From the NCBI GenBank assembly GCA_964369025.1, contig CAYJEC010000001.1, positions 1 to 41,778 on the forward strand: DNA of 41,778 nucleotides. The letters run 5' to 3'. Positions 1-22,904 of this stretch are shown piece by piece. The stretch is from an uncultured Ideonella sp. (GTDB lineage: Bacteria > Pseudomonadota > Gammaproteobacteria > Burkholderiales > Burkholderiaceae_C). Made by a program: the position numbers and the translations under genes. The notes under the pieces were generated by a model, which was given only the letters and a program-made list of their open reading frames with translations, did no database searches and was not told where the DNA came from. Each line of letters opens with the position of its first letter. The stretch's first letter is position 1.

Positions 1-2546
1 CCTCCTCCTGGAGATTCAAACCTTACTGTATTGGTAGTGCTATCGTAAGTCCAAACATAACCATCTGTAGGACTTCCTACTATTACTTTGATATTATCAA
101 TATACTGAACGTTACTCTCGTCTATTTCTAATCCTGAACAGTTTATTAAAGTTACATTTGAATTGCCTGGATAAACTGTATTGTTATCACCTTTGATTAG
201 AATATTTGAACAGTTAGCGCCTACCTGATTCTCATTACCGGTTACCTGAACACCTACTGAACTATTAATGACGTTTCCGTTACCACCCTGCCAAATACCA
301 TTGATAACATTCTTAACTAGCATCTGGTCACCACCTCCACCACCACCATAGAAACTGTCTCCTCCTCCTCCGGTGTTATCCCCTCCGTTCCCCGTTCCGT
401 CCCCTAAAGTTGTATCGACTGAAACTACTAAGGCATCCACTAAATTAAGTTTAAGGAATTTACAAAGTGTTGTTGATTCACCGTTAGGTAAGTAGTCTGA
501 CACCTCAAGTAATCTATACCCTGCCTTATCTATCCAGTATATTTTTCTGAAGTCTAAGGTAGTAATGTCATAAGGTTTAAGTTTAATGTAACACTCCACA
601 TACTTAGAATCTCTATCACCTATTTCATTCCATTGTCTATAATGATATTTGTCATATAAAGTTCCGTTAACTGGTAAGTTTAATCCGTCCGGTGTGGTAT
701 GGAAATAAACACCCTGGTCACCAAATGTAAGGTCATTTGCTACTGTATCTAAAGGAGTATCTAAGAACCCTGCATAGGCATACTGAGTTAAGGTGGTATA
801 AGTCGATAACCCCGCATCATAGTATCTATAAGGCATACAGTCTAGTAACCCTCCAGCAAATGCTATGATAGGTTTAGGACTTCTTTCCTGACCTTCTCCA
901 TTATAAAGTGTCCGCATCAATACCATTTCCTTTTCAGAAAGGTACTGCAATGGTTCAAGGATAAAAGGTAATTCTAATTTCCTTGTCTCTTTTACAAAGT
1001 CATTATCAAATATCAGTCTTTTATATCCCCACGTTTCACCTACACTCTCATAGAATACTTTACTTATATCGTCATCATTCTTGTAGTAGTTAAAGTCTAT
1101 TTCTTTTACCGTTAATAACCCTTCAGGTTTAATTGTAAAGTCTTTTGAAGTATCTAGTTTATCTGTCCAATCAATTACATCGTCTGTAAAGTAATCGTCT
1201 CTAGGTTCTATTATATAAGTTCCGTTTACATCGGTGTCAATATACAGATTGAACATTTTAGCAAGTCCCATAATGAAATCTGTCTGCTTCATTGGTGGGA
1301 GTACATCTGCTACTGAACTTGTTGAACCGTATGGTATTTGTGCTTCAGGATAGAAAACAAACTCTAAAGGCAGTAACCCTGATAAGAAAGTTCCGGTAGT
1401 TGCAACTGCTACCCCGCCTGACTTTGCAGTACCTAAACACATCCTTATCTCATCACCTGCGAGTAGGTAAGTGCTTAATGATATTGACCCGTTCACATAG
1501 GTACTGGAATCTATTAAACTATCGCTACCTAGTATTGAATAAACTCCGGACCTCTTTAAGATTATTAGGTTGGTAATCTCTTTACCGGTACTACCGCCTC
1601 CGTCAACTTGGTAAAAGTACCTGTATTGTAAGTTCCAATATCCGTCATAGTCTACTGTAATTGTACCGTTAGCTGCCGTATACTGCCCTAAGTTATCCTG
1701 AACTACTGTATTAAATATCCATTGGTCACTATTGAATGTCGCTGATAGAGACCCTGCATTAAAAGATTCTGACTGATTTGTATTTCTTATTGCCTCTGCT
1801 TTATTGTTTGCCTGGGTAGCAGGGTCAATCACAAACTTACTCATATCTGATTCCATTATCAGAGATTTGAATAGTGATGAGGTTATAAATGCTGAACTAT
1901 ATTCTAATCCCGCATTACTCATTATTAAACTAAATATCTCATAACAGAACCACCACGGCTTAAAACTATTAAAGTCAACTGCCATGCCTCCCGTTGGCCC
2001 TCCGTTCCTCCATGTAAAGGACTTACCTCTATCCATCATAGGGTAGTACCCGCCTGAACCATCATTAGGGGTTAACCATGAGTTCTGAATGTCTGTATCG
2101 GTATAATCGAATGTTCCAAACCCTGTAATATCATTTAAGGTAAGGTTAGCAAGTCTACTCATTAGATCAGCGTTCTGACCATAGATTACTAATTCATAAA
2201 TTACTTTGTTATTCTCAAGTACTATTATCTCTGTCAGTTGGCAGTACCCTGAAATCTGAATATGTTGGTCTTGCGTATAATAACAGGTTGCTTTCTTTGC
2301 AGGGTTAAAGTCAGGGTTAAGTTGTTGAGCGTCCCTAATGTGAAAGTTTACATCGAATAAAGCTGCGAATATTCCATCATTATTCTTACTCCCTGGTATC
2401 TGTACTGTCTTTGTATAATCACTTAACCTCTTACTAGGGTCTTCGATTGAATAAATATTTTTGGTTATACTAATGTCAATGTCCTCAATTGTATCAATTG
2501 AGAATAAAGTGTCATAGTTATAGCCTATCAGTAGTTCATTCCTCAT
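1..2546 (-). CDS. Large tail protein (hub/tip-like), truncated at the left window edge; not in the ORF track
   Basis: ATG at 2546 overlaps the upstream TGA (ATGA). It begins MRNELLIGYNYDTLFSIDTIEDIDISITKNIYSIEDPSKRLSDYTKTVQIPGSKNND, resembling Bacteroidota phage tail proteins. I translated both ends in the same frame; the last part has a Gly-rich linker and GNxN repeats and runs off position 1. Confidence 0.75.
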   Translation of the reverse strand, partial: MRNELLIGYNYDTLFSIDTIEDIDISITKNIYSIEDPSKRLSDYTKTVQIPGSKNNDGIFAALFDVNFHIRDAQQLNPDFNPAKKATCYYTQDQHIQISGYCQLTEIIVLENNKVIYELVIYGQNADLMSRLANLTLNDITGFGTFDYTDTDIQNSWLTPNDGSGGYYPMMDRGKSFTWRNGGPTGGMAVDFNSFKPWWFCYEIFSLIMSNAGLEYSSAFITSSLFKSLIMESDMSKFVIDPATQANNKAEAIRNTNQSESFNAGSLSATFNSDQWIFNTVVQDNLGQYTAANGTITVDYDGYWNLQYRYFYQVDGGGSTGKEITNLIILKRSGVYSILGSDSLIDSSTYVNGSISLSTYLLAGDEIRMCLGTAKSGGVAVATTGTFLSGLLPLEFVFYPEAQIPYGSTSSVADVLPPMKQTDFIMGLAKMFNLYIDTDVNGTYIIEPRDDYFTDDVIDWTDKLDTSKDFTIKPEGLLTVKEIDFNYYKNDDDISKVFYESVGETWGYKRLIFDNDFVKETRKLELPFILEPLQYLSEKEMVLMRTLYNGEGQERSPKPIIAFAGGLLDCMPYRYYDAGLSTYTTLTQYAYAGFLDTPLDTVANDLTFGDQGVYFHTTPDGLNLPVNGTLYDKYHYRQWNEIGDRDSKYVECYIKLKPYDITTLDFRKIYWIDKAGYRLLEVSDYLPNGESTTLCKFLKLNLVDALVVSVDTTLGDGTGNGGDNTGGGGDSFYGGGGGGDQMLVKNVINGIWQGGNGNVINSSVGVQVTGNENQVGANCSNILIKGDNNTVYPGNSNVTLINCSGLEIDESNVQYIDNIKVIVGSPTDGYVWTYDSTTNTVRFESPGG

Positions 2547-3778
2547 AACCTTTGACGCTGAGTAAGGGTGCTTAAAGTAATATCTATTTCAATGTTGAAT
2601 AGTTTTTCAACTTCTGTCTTTTTAGCTTGATAAGTAGAATTGTCTACTGTTACCGCTACAAAAGTATTACCTGAGTTAATAGGTGCTATCATGTAAACCA
2701 ATGGACTTGCTATGAGTTCTTTTAACCATTCGGCAGTATCATTATCTACAAACCCCGACCTTAGTCTGTACTTCTGTTCTACCTTTGAATGGAATACACT
2801 TGTCTCTTGTTGGTAAGTGTTATAGGTAAATGTACTTGCGGTCAGTACCCCTAATAGTTTATTGTACCTTGCTTTAGTGGATTGAATACTATCGTCTCTG
2901 ATAAAATCAAAGTTGAAAGCATCAAACCGGCCTAACGAGTTCAGGAAATAAAGACGGGTATAAGTATCATCCCTTGTACAACTTCTATCTAATTCAAACT
3001 CTTTCCATTCTAATGTCTGAGTGTCTACTGAGTTAAATGATGCTACTCTGTAATGATGAACGCTATCAGTTATTAAAGGTTGTGAACCGGTTGTAAGTGA
3101 TGTATTGTTTAAATCTTCAGGCCCAACAAGTATAGACATGAACCTTGCACTATCTGTTGCGAGTGCGGTGTAAGGATTACTTTTAGTTGCAGTCTGAATT
3201 AAAGTACCAGCACTATTATAAGTTTCTATTTTAAGATTGTCCAGGTTGGTATCTATTGCGCTACCTGCATCTATTGTACCTAATTCATAACTATCCCCTA
3301 TTCTTATTTTAATCCTTGTTGGTTGGTTGGTTAGCCAGTGCCTTGATGAGTTACTTGCATACCTATCCCCTAATCTAAAGTTTACATAGTCTTGCCAGTT
3401 CATTGCTGAATTGACCGCTATGACATAACTAGATACCCCACTTGCATGAAATACTAACTGAGGGTGTTCCTCAATAACTTTTAACTGAAACTTTTTAAAT
3501 ACATTCACCCCTAACTGCCAACCGGTAGTCCCTGCGATAAGATTAGATATGTCATAGCTTAGATACTTCTCAATAGTACGGTGAGCGTCAAACAAAAGAT
3601 TTCCGTATGTAGGTTGCTTTAGATTAATGAATGATGCTATGGTGTCTCCGTTCTCGTCTAACAGTTCACTATTAAATCTGAATTGAGTGTTATGTGATGC
3701 AGTTGAACTAACAACAAAGTTCATAGGGTCAAACCCTGAAGATATAGCGTCCGGTATCTGAAGGAATGATATACTCAT
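2543..3778 (-). CDS. Virion structural/tail protein
   Basis: 411 aa with C-terminal 'LYFLNSLGRFDAFNF...SGFVD...WLKELIASPLVY', typical of distal tail-type proteins of Bacteroidota phages; context. Confidence 0.65.
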   Translation of the reverse strand: MSISFLQIPDAISSGFDPMNFVVSSTASHNTQFRFNSELLDENGDTIASFINLKQPTYGNLLFDAHRTIEKYLSYDISNLIAGTTGWQLGVNVFKKFQLKVIEEHPQLVFHASGVSSYVIAVNSAMNWQDYVNFRLGDRYASNSSRHWLTNQPTRIKIRIGDSYELGTIDAGSAIDTNLDNLKIETYNSAGTLIQTATKSNPYTALATDSARFMSILVGPEDLNNTSLTTGSQPLITDSVHHYRVASFNSVDTQTLEWKEFELDRSCTRDDTYTRLYFLNSLGRFDAFNFDFIRDDSIQSTKARYNKLLGVLTASTFTYNTYQQETSVFHSKVEQKYRLRSGFVDNDTAEWLKELIASPLVYMIAPINSGNTFVAVTVDNSTYQAKKTEVEKLFNIEIDITLSTLTQRQRL

Positions 3779-21018: not shown

Positions 21019-21033
21019 AATGTTAAAATATAA

Positions 21034-21142
21034 AAGCCGGCAATTGAAAAGTGGGCTGAAGGGGATATGTTAACCCCAACACTTGACAACAACCGGCTTG
21101 AATTTTAGAATTAATTTTTAACATACATATTTTAATTTCAGC
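21034..21142 (-). ncRNA. Structured leader / C4-antisense-like RNA
   Basis: Nested stems AAGCCGG/CCGGCTT, AAGTG/CACTT and GGGG/CCCC, with single-stranded parts complementary to sequences at 21118-21125 and 21137-21142. Confidence 0.5.
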
Positions 21143-21189
21143 ATTACAATATTCGGGATTATTTTTGACTTTACAAAAGATTATTTTTA

Positions 21190-22104
21190 CTATTTTTCAA
21201 AAGAGGCTGTATAATCCTCGATTGATTTAAATATCTGATAAGCGACTTGAGGGACTATTGCGTTACCGTATGCCTTTATACTTTCTTTTGCCCACTCTGA
21301 AAAGGTGATGTTATCCAACCCCCCGGGAATCCCATCATTTGCTCTACGAATAGGGGATTCAGTGGGCCATCCACCATCATTGAAAGCTCTATACTCTTTC
21401 CTATCTCCAGCCGTCTTTTTACTGAATTGTCCTTCGGGCCTCCCCTGTCCCTGTTGTCTGATGCAGTTGGTGTTGGTAGCATTTTTGTTGCTATCCTTCT
21501 CATTATTCGCCCTCCTTTGTCTAATCTCTTTAGGCTTTCCCAATTCGTATTGTAATCGTGAATCTCTCCGGCTGTTGGAGTAGGCAACAAACCAGACTCT
21601 ATCTCTCCTATGTGGAGCGTTGACGGCACAAGCTGGAAGTACATACGGGAATACTTCGTACCCCTCAGCTTCCAAATCAGCCTGCACTTCATCGAATACC
21701 AACCCTCCTGACCAATTAATAAGGCCGAAAACGTTTTCACCCACGACCCAACTTGGTCGAATTTCTCTAATTGCTCTAAGCATTTCAGGCCATAAGTGGC
21801 GGTCATCTTCTTTTCCCTTTCGTTTACCGGCAAGGCTGTAGGGTTGGCAAGGTCACGGGAACCCACCGACGAGAACAATGTCATTTGTCCTCCAGTGGGT
21901 TCCTTTTCGTTTTGTAAGTTCTGCATTTATTATGTCGTATGTGAGTGTTTTTATATCATCGTGGTGATAAGCATCAGGCCAGTAGTGTTTCAATATCTTT
22001 TGTCCGAAAGGATTTATTTCGCATGAGACAATATTCTCCCATCCCATCCATTCAGAGGCAAGTTCAAAACCACCAATACCACTAAAAAGGCTAACTAACT
22101 GCAC
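21190..22104 (-). CDS. dcm: C5-cytosine DNA methyltransferase, large subunit, interrupted by an in-frame TGA at 21853-21855
   Basis: GTG start at 22104: motif I SLFSGIGG, motif IV GGFP*PCQPYS, motif VI GENV, motif VIII HRRDRVW, motif X YGNAIVP, all in one frame. Confidence 0.85.
21276..21926 (-). CDS. Alternative-frame methyltransferase small subunit (TRD + motif IX)
   Basis: Nested ORF with two LPTPTA repeats and motif IX-like LNPLFVEQMMGFPGGW, which the main frame lacks; the true start is uncertain. Confidence 0.7.
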   Translation of the reverse strand: MQNLQNEKEPTGGQMTLFSSVGSRDLANPTALPVNEREKKMTATYGLKCLEQLEKFDQVGSWVKTFSALLIGQEGWYSMKCRLIWKLRGTKYSRMYFQLVPSTLHIGEIESGLLPTPTAGEIHDYNTNWESLKRLDKGGRIMRRIATKMLPTPTASDNRDRGGPKDNSVKRRLEIGKSIELSMMVDGPLNPLFVEQMMGFPGGWITSPFQSGQKKV

Positions 22105-22519
22105 GTTTCCTCCCTCTTGTAAATTGGTTATTATGGGGAGAATAAAGTCTTGTATGTTCAGATTTTGGCAAACATTCAAGATTTGAAATGTTGTTATTTG
22201 CCTTGTCCTCGTCTATATGGTGAATATCATATCCGGTTGGTATCTTACCTTTTTCTTTCTCCCAAACGTATCGGTGCATCAATCCTCTGCATCCAATAGT
22301 TAATGAATAATACCCAGTGTTTCTAAGTGTAAACTTTTTACCATCGTAAATCTGATAAGGTCTAAAATTAACCCCTCTTAAAGTGAACCCTCTCCCCTCA
22401 AAAGCTTTATATACACATTGCCTTGTTACACCTAATTCTTTGCCGACTTGATCTAATGACAGCCCTGATAGATATAAATCATAGGCTAAATCAAATTTTG
22501 TATCTTTTTTCCGTCCCAT
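22091..22519 (-). CDS. HNH endonuclease with N-terminal HTH
   Basis: GLSLDQVGKELGVTRQCV; MHRYVWE...IHHIDEDKANNNISNLECL...H. Likely start is the ATG at 22519, downstream of TACATTTG (22528-22535). Confidence 0.88.
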   Translation of the reverse strand: MGRKKDTKFDLAYDLYLSGLSLDQVGKELGVTRQCVYKAFEGRGFTLRGVNFRPYQIYDGKKFTLRNTGYYSLTIGCRGLMHRYVWEKEKGKIPTGYDIHHIDEDKANNNISNLECLPKSEHTRLYSPHNNQFTRGRKRAVS

Positions 22520-22602
22520 TATGTTTACAAATGTATATACTATTTTTGACAATTAAACACTTTTGTTTACTTATTTTGATTATTTTTCAATTATCTACCT
22601 GT

Positions 22603-22863
22603 TTAATTGGTAATCAATTTGTCATAAAGTTTTACCGCCTTGTTTCTTTCTGATTGAGGCAGTTTGTGAACGGCATAGTAGTAAGGGTTGCCATACTTGT
22701 TTTTATCTTTTACAAGGGTTGTTTGGATGCTTAAACCGTACTTAGTTTTAAGTTCTGATAAACGGGTTCTGAATCCTGGCCATTGAATTGTTAAGGATGA
22801 AACGCTCTCCCTTCTTATTAGCTTGAAAAGAACTTCGCTGATGTTTGATGTTGGCTTTTTCAT
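22603..22863 (-). CDS. Small wHTH-like protein
   Basis: GFRTRLSELK.KYGLSI pattern. Confidence 0.55.
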   Translation of the reverse strand: MKKPTSNISEVLFKLIRRESVSSLTIQWPGFRTRLSELKTKYGLSIQTTLVKDKNKYGNPYYYAVHKLPQSERNKAVKLYDKLITN

Positions 22864-22904
22864 TGTGTTATTTGGGTTGTATTGTAGTAGGTTGTTTGCA
22901 TGGG

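Follow-up and report, generated by a model that had tools for sequence, protein, structure and literature searches.

The closest described systems are gene 60 and the mobile element MobA of T4, in which a stop codon stands right after the 'take-off' codon, an RNA structure lies upstream and an HNH endonuclease is found alongside (10.1101/2022.08.31.505936, 10.1101/2024.12.09.627546, PMC5009743, PMC7026636; this and the following accounts go as far as the cited sections of each source). For the MobA cassette, an untranslated insert has been proposed as protection against nicking (Bonocora 2011, as cited in 10.1101/2022.08.31.505936, PMC5009743 and PMC7026636). Synthetic 'stop-hops' were reported by Weiss et al. 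in 1987, at low level, between matched codons and in constructs without stimulators (PMC5009743); the cited part of the same source, a recoding review of 2016, states that no natural in-frame stop-hop was known. Short or mobile-looking interruptions that are skipped in translation include the 10-nt bypass in the gene for the terminase of Streptomyces phage phiHau3, with proposed stimulation by a 5' stem-loop (PMC10732093), and the byps of Magnusiomyces mitochondria (PMC5009743). At a stop, 70S ribosomes are pushed forward by hairpins that refold upstream, an effect seen only without RF2 (PMC6321510), and the methyltransferase M.EcoHK31I is made of a catalytic chain plus a second chain nested in another frame (PMC2836561).

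Here we analyse a phage C5 cytosine methyltransferase gene in which a single in-frame stop, flanked by two proline codons, interrupts motif IV; an earlier note, made from the sequence, had proposed that ribosomes hop over this stop. Our literature search, which took in few subscription papers and no bioRxiv supplements, returned no report of a phage cytosine methyltransferase with a stop or a hop in its motif IV.

RESULTS

An interrupted methyltransferase gene in a phage contig

The window (the whole stretch of DNA analysed, 41,778 nt at 36% G+C) is a complete contig whose terminase and portal genes identify it as phage. The genome bin holding it has 67% G+C and is evidently not its host; we regard the pairing as a binning error, so that the tRNAs of the bin (which include a tRNA-SeC) and its taxonomy say nothing about the host, and a host assignment from the bin was rejected on this G+C mismatch. 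Gene content, in particular a BT4734-like domain, suggests instead that the phage clade may infect Bacteroidota, and the metagenome runs in which the window was found are aquatic or from wastewater, where labelled. No tRNA gene was detected within the window, and a scan of it for promoters and terminators gave matches at chance level.

Reading along the minus strand, on which the methyltransferase and nuclease elements of the window lie, we see GGT GGG TTC CCG TGA CCT TGC CAA, as the earlier note had reported, and its two open reading frames (21853..22179 and 21190..21783) are indeed one frame interrupted by a single TGA. The 5' ORF of the methyltransferase alpha chain (21853..22104) begins at a GTG and encodes motifs I–III and GGFP in 83 aa before the TGA, while the 3' part (21190..21849), with the catalytic Cys, ENV, RxR and motif X, is open to a TAG. 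The elements of the junction are a take-off codon CCG (Pro; 21856..21858), the stop TGA (21853..21855; TAA or TAG in relatives), a 'landing' triplet CCT (21850..21852; YYN in relatives and likely the resident gene's own Pro codon) and the catalytic Cys codon TGC (21849-21847); that is, codon, stop and triplet, with the frame resumed 6 nt on, as a stop-hop would have it. Alignment with M.HhaI places a two-residue excess at GF--PCQ, bearing out the claim of six extra nucleotides in motif IV, and the protein, translated with an X at the stop, matches Pfam DNA_methylase with an E-value of 1.5e-38.

A second, nested ORF in the +1 frame (21276..21926; ATG at 21926, or at 21884 in the loop of the hairpin described below) corresponds to a beta chain of the M.EcoHK31I type and stays open across the insert, again in agreement with the earlier note. 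With motifs I–VIII and X on the alpha chain, the layout in sequence is that of the two-chain M.EcoHK31I type; the LNP...GFP end of the nested chain we take to be 'motif IX'. The window contig holds no second copy of the methyltransferase, and the first in-frame ATG past the stop (21783) lies beyond the catalytic Cys. Among relatives, four loci (L019, L072, L056 and L482) have motif X in a frame other than that of the alpha chain, at the end of the beta frame in L019, so that the split between chains varies; in another (L088, ~3000-3725, plus strand), a second C5 methyltransferase ORF lies directly upstream of the insert allele.

Contigs from other runs span the site, which disposes of an assembly error: no difference is seen there in a contig of 7,337 nt from run X1 (possibly the source run) or in one of 182 nt from run X2 (same study as X1, depth 3), with the proviso that assembled contigs, as compared here, drop rare variants. 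A further contig from another study (run X11, 91% identical), which spans 21692-22613, shows 80 differences, none of them a gap at the site; this comparison concerns gaps, not the letters of its stop.

The region around the methyltransferase resembles a series of swappable modules. Relatives in several runs skip or replace 21020-21145 (122-124 nt) and 22613-22866 (252 nt; small ORF 22603-22863), and a contig of run X5 skips 21177-22559, with 35 nt on its short side. The spacer at 21033-21100 contains an inverted repeat-like stretch. A-rich words such as GTCAAAAATA are common to the spacers on either side of the module (21140-21190 and 22520-22600) and may represent a phage promoter or a module-boundary motif.

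The six-base insert recurs, and its middle triplet is a stop

Pooling all scans, GGFP-stop-xCQ was found in C5 methyltransferase genes in 141 distinct contexts, forming 117 clusters at 90% identity. A first, exact pattern gave 29 viral loci, 13 of them methyltransferases. When the middle triplet was left free (GGNGGNTTYCCN-NNN-CCNTGYCAR), 75 viral loci were recovered, of which 50 were methyltransferases, and in all 50 the middle triplet is a stop (TGA 24, TAG 15, TAA 11); the 25 chance matches to the same pattern have 24 sense codons and one stop, and the pattern is thus not one of chance. As TGYCAR was fixed in the search patterns, conservation of the Cys carries no evidential weight. In GTDB genomes, four of 78 matches were methyltransferases, all with stops, one of them in Muriventricola aceti H5_61 (NZ_JAOQKF010000002.1), a cultured organism whose allele has the fused layout described below. 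Of 119 metagenome loci, 82 passed a methyltransferase filter (which dropped some six further short or cut methyltransferase loci); TGG, which the metagenome pattern permitted, occurs in none of the 82 compared with 7/37 of the others.

Insert alleles make up roughly 1% of their pattern class (85 insert contigs against an estimated 6,900 normal GGFPCQP stretches). Among the 120 short homologues listed from a protein collection, 103 terminate in GGFP. In the INPHARED set no cultured phage with the insert was found at the level of the matches listed. A variable-gap scan (CAG codon only, 15/64 parts, 120 loci) showed methyltransferase sites with either normal or 6-nt spacing. A 9-nt version did emerge from a scan that started from the HNH nuclease: L739 (2134-2160) has CCA TAA GGA CCG before TGC, the same hairpin and an HNH gene upstream. 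The recurrence foreseen for CCN-stop-CCN-TGY in homologues is therefore present, in 117 clusters, although the landing triplet is often not CCN.

Take-off is held to proline and landing to two pyrimidines

By cluster, the stops are TGA 48, TAA 45 and TAG 24 (n=117). Two scans in which both flanking triplets were free (96 loci, 85 of them methyltransferase contigs) show that the triplet preceding the stop is CCN in 84/85 contigs and CAT in one; the latter, L496 (~2501-2526, minus strand, landing CCA), is an allele in decay or else departs from the rule of Pro at take-off. The landing triplet begins with CC in 35, CT in 39, TC in 10 and TT in one of the 85 contigs, and is non-Pro in 50 (CTN, TCN, TTA); it is nevertheless YYN in 85/85, with a purine never found at positions 1-2. 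Of the 'matched Pro codons' described earlier, the take-off codon is thus held to Pro whereas the landing codon is not, and identity of the two does not hold up, the codons being CCG and CCT in the window itself and identical in only 29/117 clusters.

That the landing triplet need not encode Pro fits a triplet which is not decoded, and the lack of purines at its first two positions fits re-pairing with the GG of a tRNA-Pro anticodon (NGG) through G·U, as standard wobble rules would allow. As C-to-T is the commonest mutation, and is silent in the beta frame at landing position 1, the wobble argument carries less weight for TCN, though not for the 39 CTN. The landing dinucleotide changed at least 19-21 times on two trees. 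Its third base is a purine in 31/32 non-Pro clusters against 57/85 CCN clusters (p 5e-4), and NNG landing accompanies a CCG take-off in 21/57 clusters as opposed to 3/60 without it; the clusters being related, such correlations between take-off and landing may reflect shared descent.

CCC followed by a stop is a +1 shift site, and CCC take-off is rare (3/117 insert clusters, compared with 15/79 and 45/101 in controls); a +1 frameshift into the beta frame was considered and is unlikely, given this avoidance. The upstream peptides differ widely between clades. In a check for a stem in the A site, the mean pairing probability across stop and landing triplet was 0.38-0.66, similar to background. 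Tandem duplication of CCNTGY was rejected as the main origin of the insert, as no GGFPCPCQ methyltransferase was found and the empty-allele junction described below points to insertion of a cassette.

A conserved, predicted hairpin ends at the take-off codon

Immediately upstream, the RNA of the window is predicted to fold into a hairpin (21858..21903) of 19 pairs with a 2-nt bulge and a 6-nt loop, the 3' arm of which ends at the first C of the take-off codon. At -29.6 kcal/mol (z -3.55) it is more stable than any of 200 shuffles, and it takes in a GGAGG element as well as a +1-frame ATG; an ATG in that frame lies at -17 or -20, within the hairpin, in 51 insert clusters. Across 116 insert alleles the median z is -4.6, compared with +0.5 in 78 matched and 100 random controls, and 84/116 fall below -3 against 0/78 and 1/100, respectively, the signal being maximal for folding windows that end at the take-off codon.

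In the window's clade (38 ungapped sequences, 36 distinct), 97.7% of cells pair, compared with 35-64% in slid registers, as judged with a shuffle that ignores the relatedness of the sequences. Two pairs show compensatory swaps (C-G 19/G-C 17 at one; A-U 24, G-C 5, U-A 5 and C-G 1 at the other), and the swaps in the stem alter amino acids in the 5' arm, matching silent sites in the 3' arm. Other clades have other stem registers (fitted, best of 47) that share the end point: the first C of take-off is paired in 81/89, the next base in 10/89, and the hairpin of the 9-nt variant ends at the same take-off base. A strong hairpin is lacking (z above -2) in 25/116 insert alleles, with only a weak stem in about a fifth, the Firmicutes fused type included. 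Rfam holds no family that matches the region.

Codon choice over the GGF segment differs accordingly from that of controls, insert alleles favouring GGG or GGC and TTC, and controls GGA. As the codon for the second Gly, GGA appears in 6/117 insert clusters and in 68/101 and 66/79 of the controls, a depletion explained by the hairpin; an internal Shine-Dalgarno sequence in GGNGG, tried as an alternative stimulator, is unsupported because it is GGA that is depleted.

The site is the right-hand end of an HNH cassette

Upstream of the methyltransferase, and overlapping its start, is a gene for an HTH-HNH endonuclease (22091..22519; 142 aa from the ATG at 22519) that matches Pfam HNH_3 with an E-value of 5e-18 and has an N-terminal HTH resembling those of resolvases. 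A second nuclease family, seen in other insert loci, begins with a similar HTH; in Pfam it matches only HTH_7, and it has conserved CxxC/HH/CxxxH residues. Foldseek gave no significant match for either model: the window nuclease is closest to I-HmuI (weak; E 0.088, TM 0.39), and HNH nucleases rank top for the second family (E 0.26 or worse).

Using two nuclease profiles, both seeded from insert loci, we find an HNH gene no more than 900 nt upstream, or fused, in 48/86 insert clusters with enough flank, as against 0/64 random and 0/73 matched controls; Pfam, which also misses the second family, found no HNH family in 118 upstream ORFs of the 64 random controls. The remaining 38/86 are without an HNH of the two modelled families, one of them having a third HNH type. 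Four layouts make up the 48: a separate upstream gene of the first family (25) or of the second (3), a second-family nuclease that lies between motifs III and IV in the methyltransferase frame and terminates at the stop of the insert (18), and a nuclease inside the gene in another frame (2). Nucleases in another frame inside the methyltransferase gene were noted in L084, L223 and L254; in the first two the nuclease is continuous with the beta-chain frame, and that of L084 is the third HNH type (PF01844).

The converse scan, starting from the window HNH, yielded 51 full-length relatives (about 20 of which had been in the seed alignment of the profile), 47 preceding a 6-nt site and one the 9-nt site; the contigs of L479 and L513 are insert alleles. 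Of the rest, one has no methyltransferase and two lie beside methyltransferases with a different motif IV and no insert; a normal GGFPCQ was found downstream of 0/51. The two, L756 (1500-2250) and L766 (1000-1900), have AGIPCQ or GGVPCQ, and in L766 the HNH starts where the methyltransferase frame stops, after motif VIII.

An empty allele defines the putative mobile cassette as 21853..22581, comprising the HNH gene, a replacement 5' methyltransferase part and the hairpin, followed by the take-off codon and the stop. In a 664-nt contig of run X4 (depth 11), whose flanks differ from the window by 5 and 9 positions, 208 other letters stand between 21852 and 22582; an ordinary 5' segment, at 66 codons plus GGF, is as long as this, the match being one of length. 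As 21853-22581 is replaced in this relative, the cassette ends at the stop. More broadly, insert alleles have a mean identity to normal alleles of 0.55 immediately upstream of the site and 0.71 immediately downstream, the latter equal to the identity of insert alleles with each other, and among the 80 sequences most closely related to the 3' part, 79 are normal alleles. On FastTree trees of 241 tips (84 insert), the insert is scattered over that of the 3' part, with 50 changes, and to a lesser degree over that of the 5' part, with 27, compared with about 70 when shuffled. From these sequence comparisons we conclude that a mobile HNH cassette has its right-hand end at the site. With take-off codon and stop supplied by the cassette and the landing triplet likely by the recipient's Pro codon, the two would be expected to match only rarely.

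Both halves of the gene are under selection

For insert alleles of the window's clade, pN/pS is 0.19 over motifs I-III, 0.27 over IV-VIII (where beta overlaps) and 0.18 over motif X, compared with 0.14, 0.21 and 0.13 in matched normal alleles, calculated over ungapped pairs of 70-99.5% identity that are not independent. The 5' part carried by the cassette has its 0.19 at a pS of 0.71. ENV, RxR and GNA are kept in one frame in 64/73 insert alleles (controls 56/59 and 71/71), the other nine being mostly misses of the motif pattern or cases of motif X in another frame. Decay of the gene, one of the alternatives originally listed, thus fails, with both halves under purifying selection, although the values lie slightly above those of normal alleles and frequent exchange of the 3' part can mimic conservation.

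DISCUSSION

A proposed hairpin-driven hop over six bases

Sequence comparison establishes the layout of the site, its recurrence, the codon constraints, the covarying stem, the cassette boundary and selection. The reading that we favour, and judge probable, is that of a hairpin-driven, in-frame stop-hop of 6 nt that travels with a homing cassette, T4 MobA/gene 60 in miniature. The original proposal of a stop-hop has come through every comparative test that was run, while selenocysteine, TGA-specific readthrough, decay and assembly error have failed.

In the course of events that we propose, a cassette made up of the HTH-HNH gene, its own 5' methyltransferase segment, the hairpin, CCN and a stop replaces the ordinary 5' segment and joins the resident gene at the resident Pro-Cys codons, as the allele comparisons show. 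What would follow, from pausing, hairpin-driven take-off and landing to product, nicking and immunity, we infer. The ribosome would pause with peptidyl-tRNA-Pro on CCN and the stop in its A site. By then the upper part of the hairpin would have refolded behind the ribosome, and zipping of what remains of the stem would pull the mRNA back. Released from its codon, the tRNA would slide 6 nt and re-pair on YYN, G·U being allowed, with decoding restarting at TGY (Cys). Nine bases would in this way give one proline, and the product would be a normal GGFPCQ enzyme with the peptide GGFPCQPYSLAGK, free of extra residues. Other ribosomes would terminate and leave the 83-aa fragment; in the layout with an in-frame nuclease between motifs III and IV, what they release would be the nuclease itself. 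On the DNA, the six bases and the altered flank would destroy the nuclease target as the cassette spreads by homing, the hop keeping the methylase at work meanwhile. Two points count against the model. The hairpin effect reported in the cited part of PMC6321510 was seen only without RF2, so a hairpin may not outcompete termination in vivo; and because both the E-site codon and the first take-off base belong to the stem, full pairing ahead of take-off is not possible.

We think it somewhat better than an even chance that, more generally, widespread homing cassettes neutralise themselves through a minimal natural stop-hop, with wobble landing on former Pro triplets and, in the fused layout, a stop that sets the ratio of nuclease to methylase.

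Alternative explanations

Leaky readthrough would need no special movement of the ribosome, as a near-cognate tRNA could read the stop, the frame is kept and the enzyme would work with two extra residues (GGFP-x-P/L/S-CQ); the stop could then simply throttle expression. Sense versions of the triplet would be expected in that case, and they are missing from all 50 viral methyltransferases, from the GTDB matches (n=78, 4 methyltransferases) and, as TGG, from all 82 metagenome loci; moreover, Leu or Ser would replace the conserved Pro before the Cys in 50/85 contigs, TAA is as common as TGA, and a 9-nt version exists (L739). We consider readthrough improbable, and give no more credence to the suggestion that a full-length alpha chain is never made, with hairpin and stop serving to regulate the beta chain (by reinitiation at the loop ATG) or to close the nuclease ORF, while the 3' part comes from another gene or from internal starts. 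The +1-frame ATG within the hairpin in 51 insert clusters speaks for such a role, as does the stop that ends an in-frame HNH ORF in 18; but the YYN restriction, the fixed take-off Pro and selection on both halves would all go unexplained, and in the window the first in-frame ATG after the stop (21783) is past the catalytic Cys, with no second copy on the contig to stand in.

It is very unlikely, in our estimation, that the cassette kills the methylase and that homing drive keeps dead alleles common, conservation then reflecting recent capture of intact 3' parts. The methylase does seem dispensable in some relatives (the X5 contig that skips 21177-22559), homing would explain spread without function and pN/pS is slightly raised; against this, purifying selection acts also on the 5' part that the cassette brings (pN/pS 0.19 at pS 0.71), a compensatory hairpin and a constrained landing triplet would be useless in a dead gene, and 64/73 alleles keep ENV, RxR and GNA in one frame. 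Less likely still is removal of the six bases before translation, by polymerase slippage or by RNA processing at the hairpin, for which the long stem beside the site could be a substrate: such removal accounts for neither the stop nor the YYN landing triplet, a hop requires no single 6-nt excision register, and no Rfam family matches the region. We know of no bacterial machinery for such a 6-nt RNA cut. The chance that the site is accounted for by selenocysteine, by stop recoding in these phages or by an error of assembly we put at close to nil, and as an explanation for the family these are already refuted. The window stop is TGA and the bin has a tRNA-SeC (in a bin evidently not that of the host), yet all three stops occur among relatives, and contigs of other runs carry the site. 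Recoding is countered by the fact that the same stop ends other long ORFs, both in the window (TAA 17, TGA 13, TAG 6) and in loci of each stop class; stop usage was relied on here instead of coding cover, which under read-through codes rose for every stop, TAA included.

Comparison with known systems

Were the hop to be borne out, a recoding element of ~55 nt would be available in more than 100 natural variants, allowing a direct test of the open model in which refolding of mRNA behind the ribosome drives forward bypassing and revealing which mismatches a landing tRNA tolerates. More than 100 protein clusters annotated as 83-aa truncated methylases would turn out to be parts of working enzymes, and T4's pairing of nuclease and bypass would be a recurring strategy.

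Set beside the systems described in the cited sections of the sources above, the insert has something in common with each. It differs from M.EcoHK31I, whose alpha frame is not described there as interrupted, in that the alpha chain is broken at motif IV. As in the Magnusiomyces byps, a mobile-looking insert would be skipped, and some of those too have imperfect matches between take-off and landing; the byps, however, involve mitochondrial ribosomes, an unused sense codon in the A site and longer inserts. The phiHau3 bypass likewise has a short gap in a phage gene and a proposed 5' stem-loop, but its trigger is the rare sense codon UUA, it is out of frame and no nuclease cassette is described for it. 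With the synthetic stop-hops of Weiss (1987) the site shares the property that nine nucleotides around a stop would specify a single amino acid; what it adds is a conserved candidate stimulator and a natural family.

The likeness to T4 gene 60/MobA is the closest: a stop directly after take-off, an upstream RNA structure (here predicted and covarying), an adjacent HNH gene, and cassette-borne sequence that replaces part of a conserved gene. Unlike in gene 60, the gap is 6 nt (once 9) and in frame, rather than 50 nt and out of frame; the tRNA would be tRNA-Pro in place of tRNA-Gly, the landing triplet is often not a Pro codon and all three stops are found; the stem reaches the take-off codon, where the 5' stem of gene 60 lies 9 nt upstream (10.1101/2024.12.09.627546); and the host gene is a C5 methyltransferase, not a topoisomerase, accompanied by two nuclease families in several layouts. 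Judged from its sequence, then, the insert appears to work like a T4 MobA/gene 60 element, while by the strict features of gap length, frame, matched codons and host gene it is not a member.
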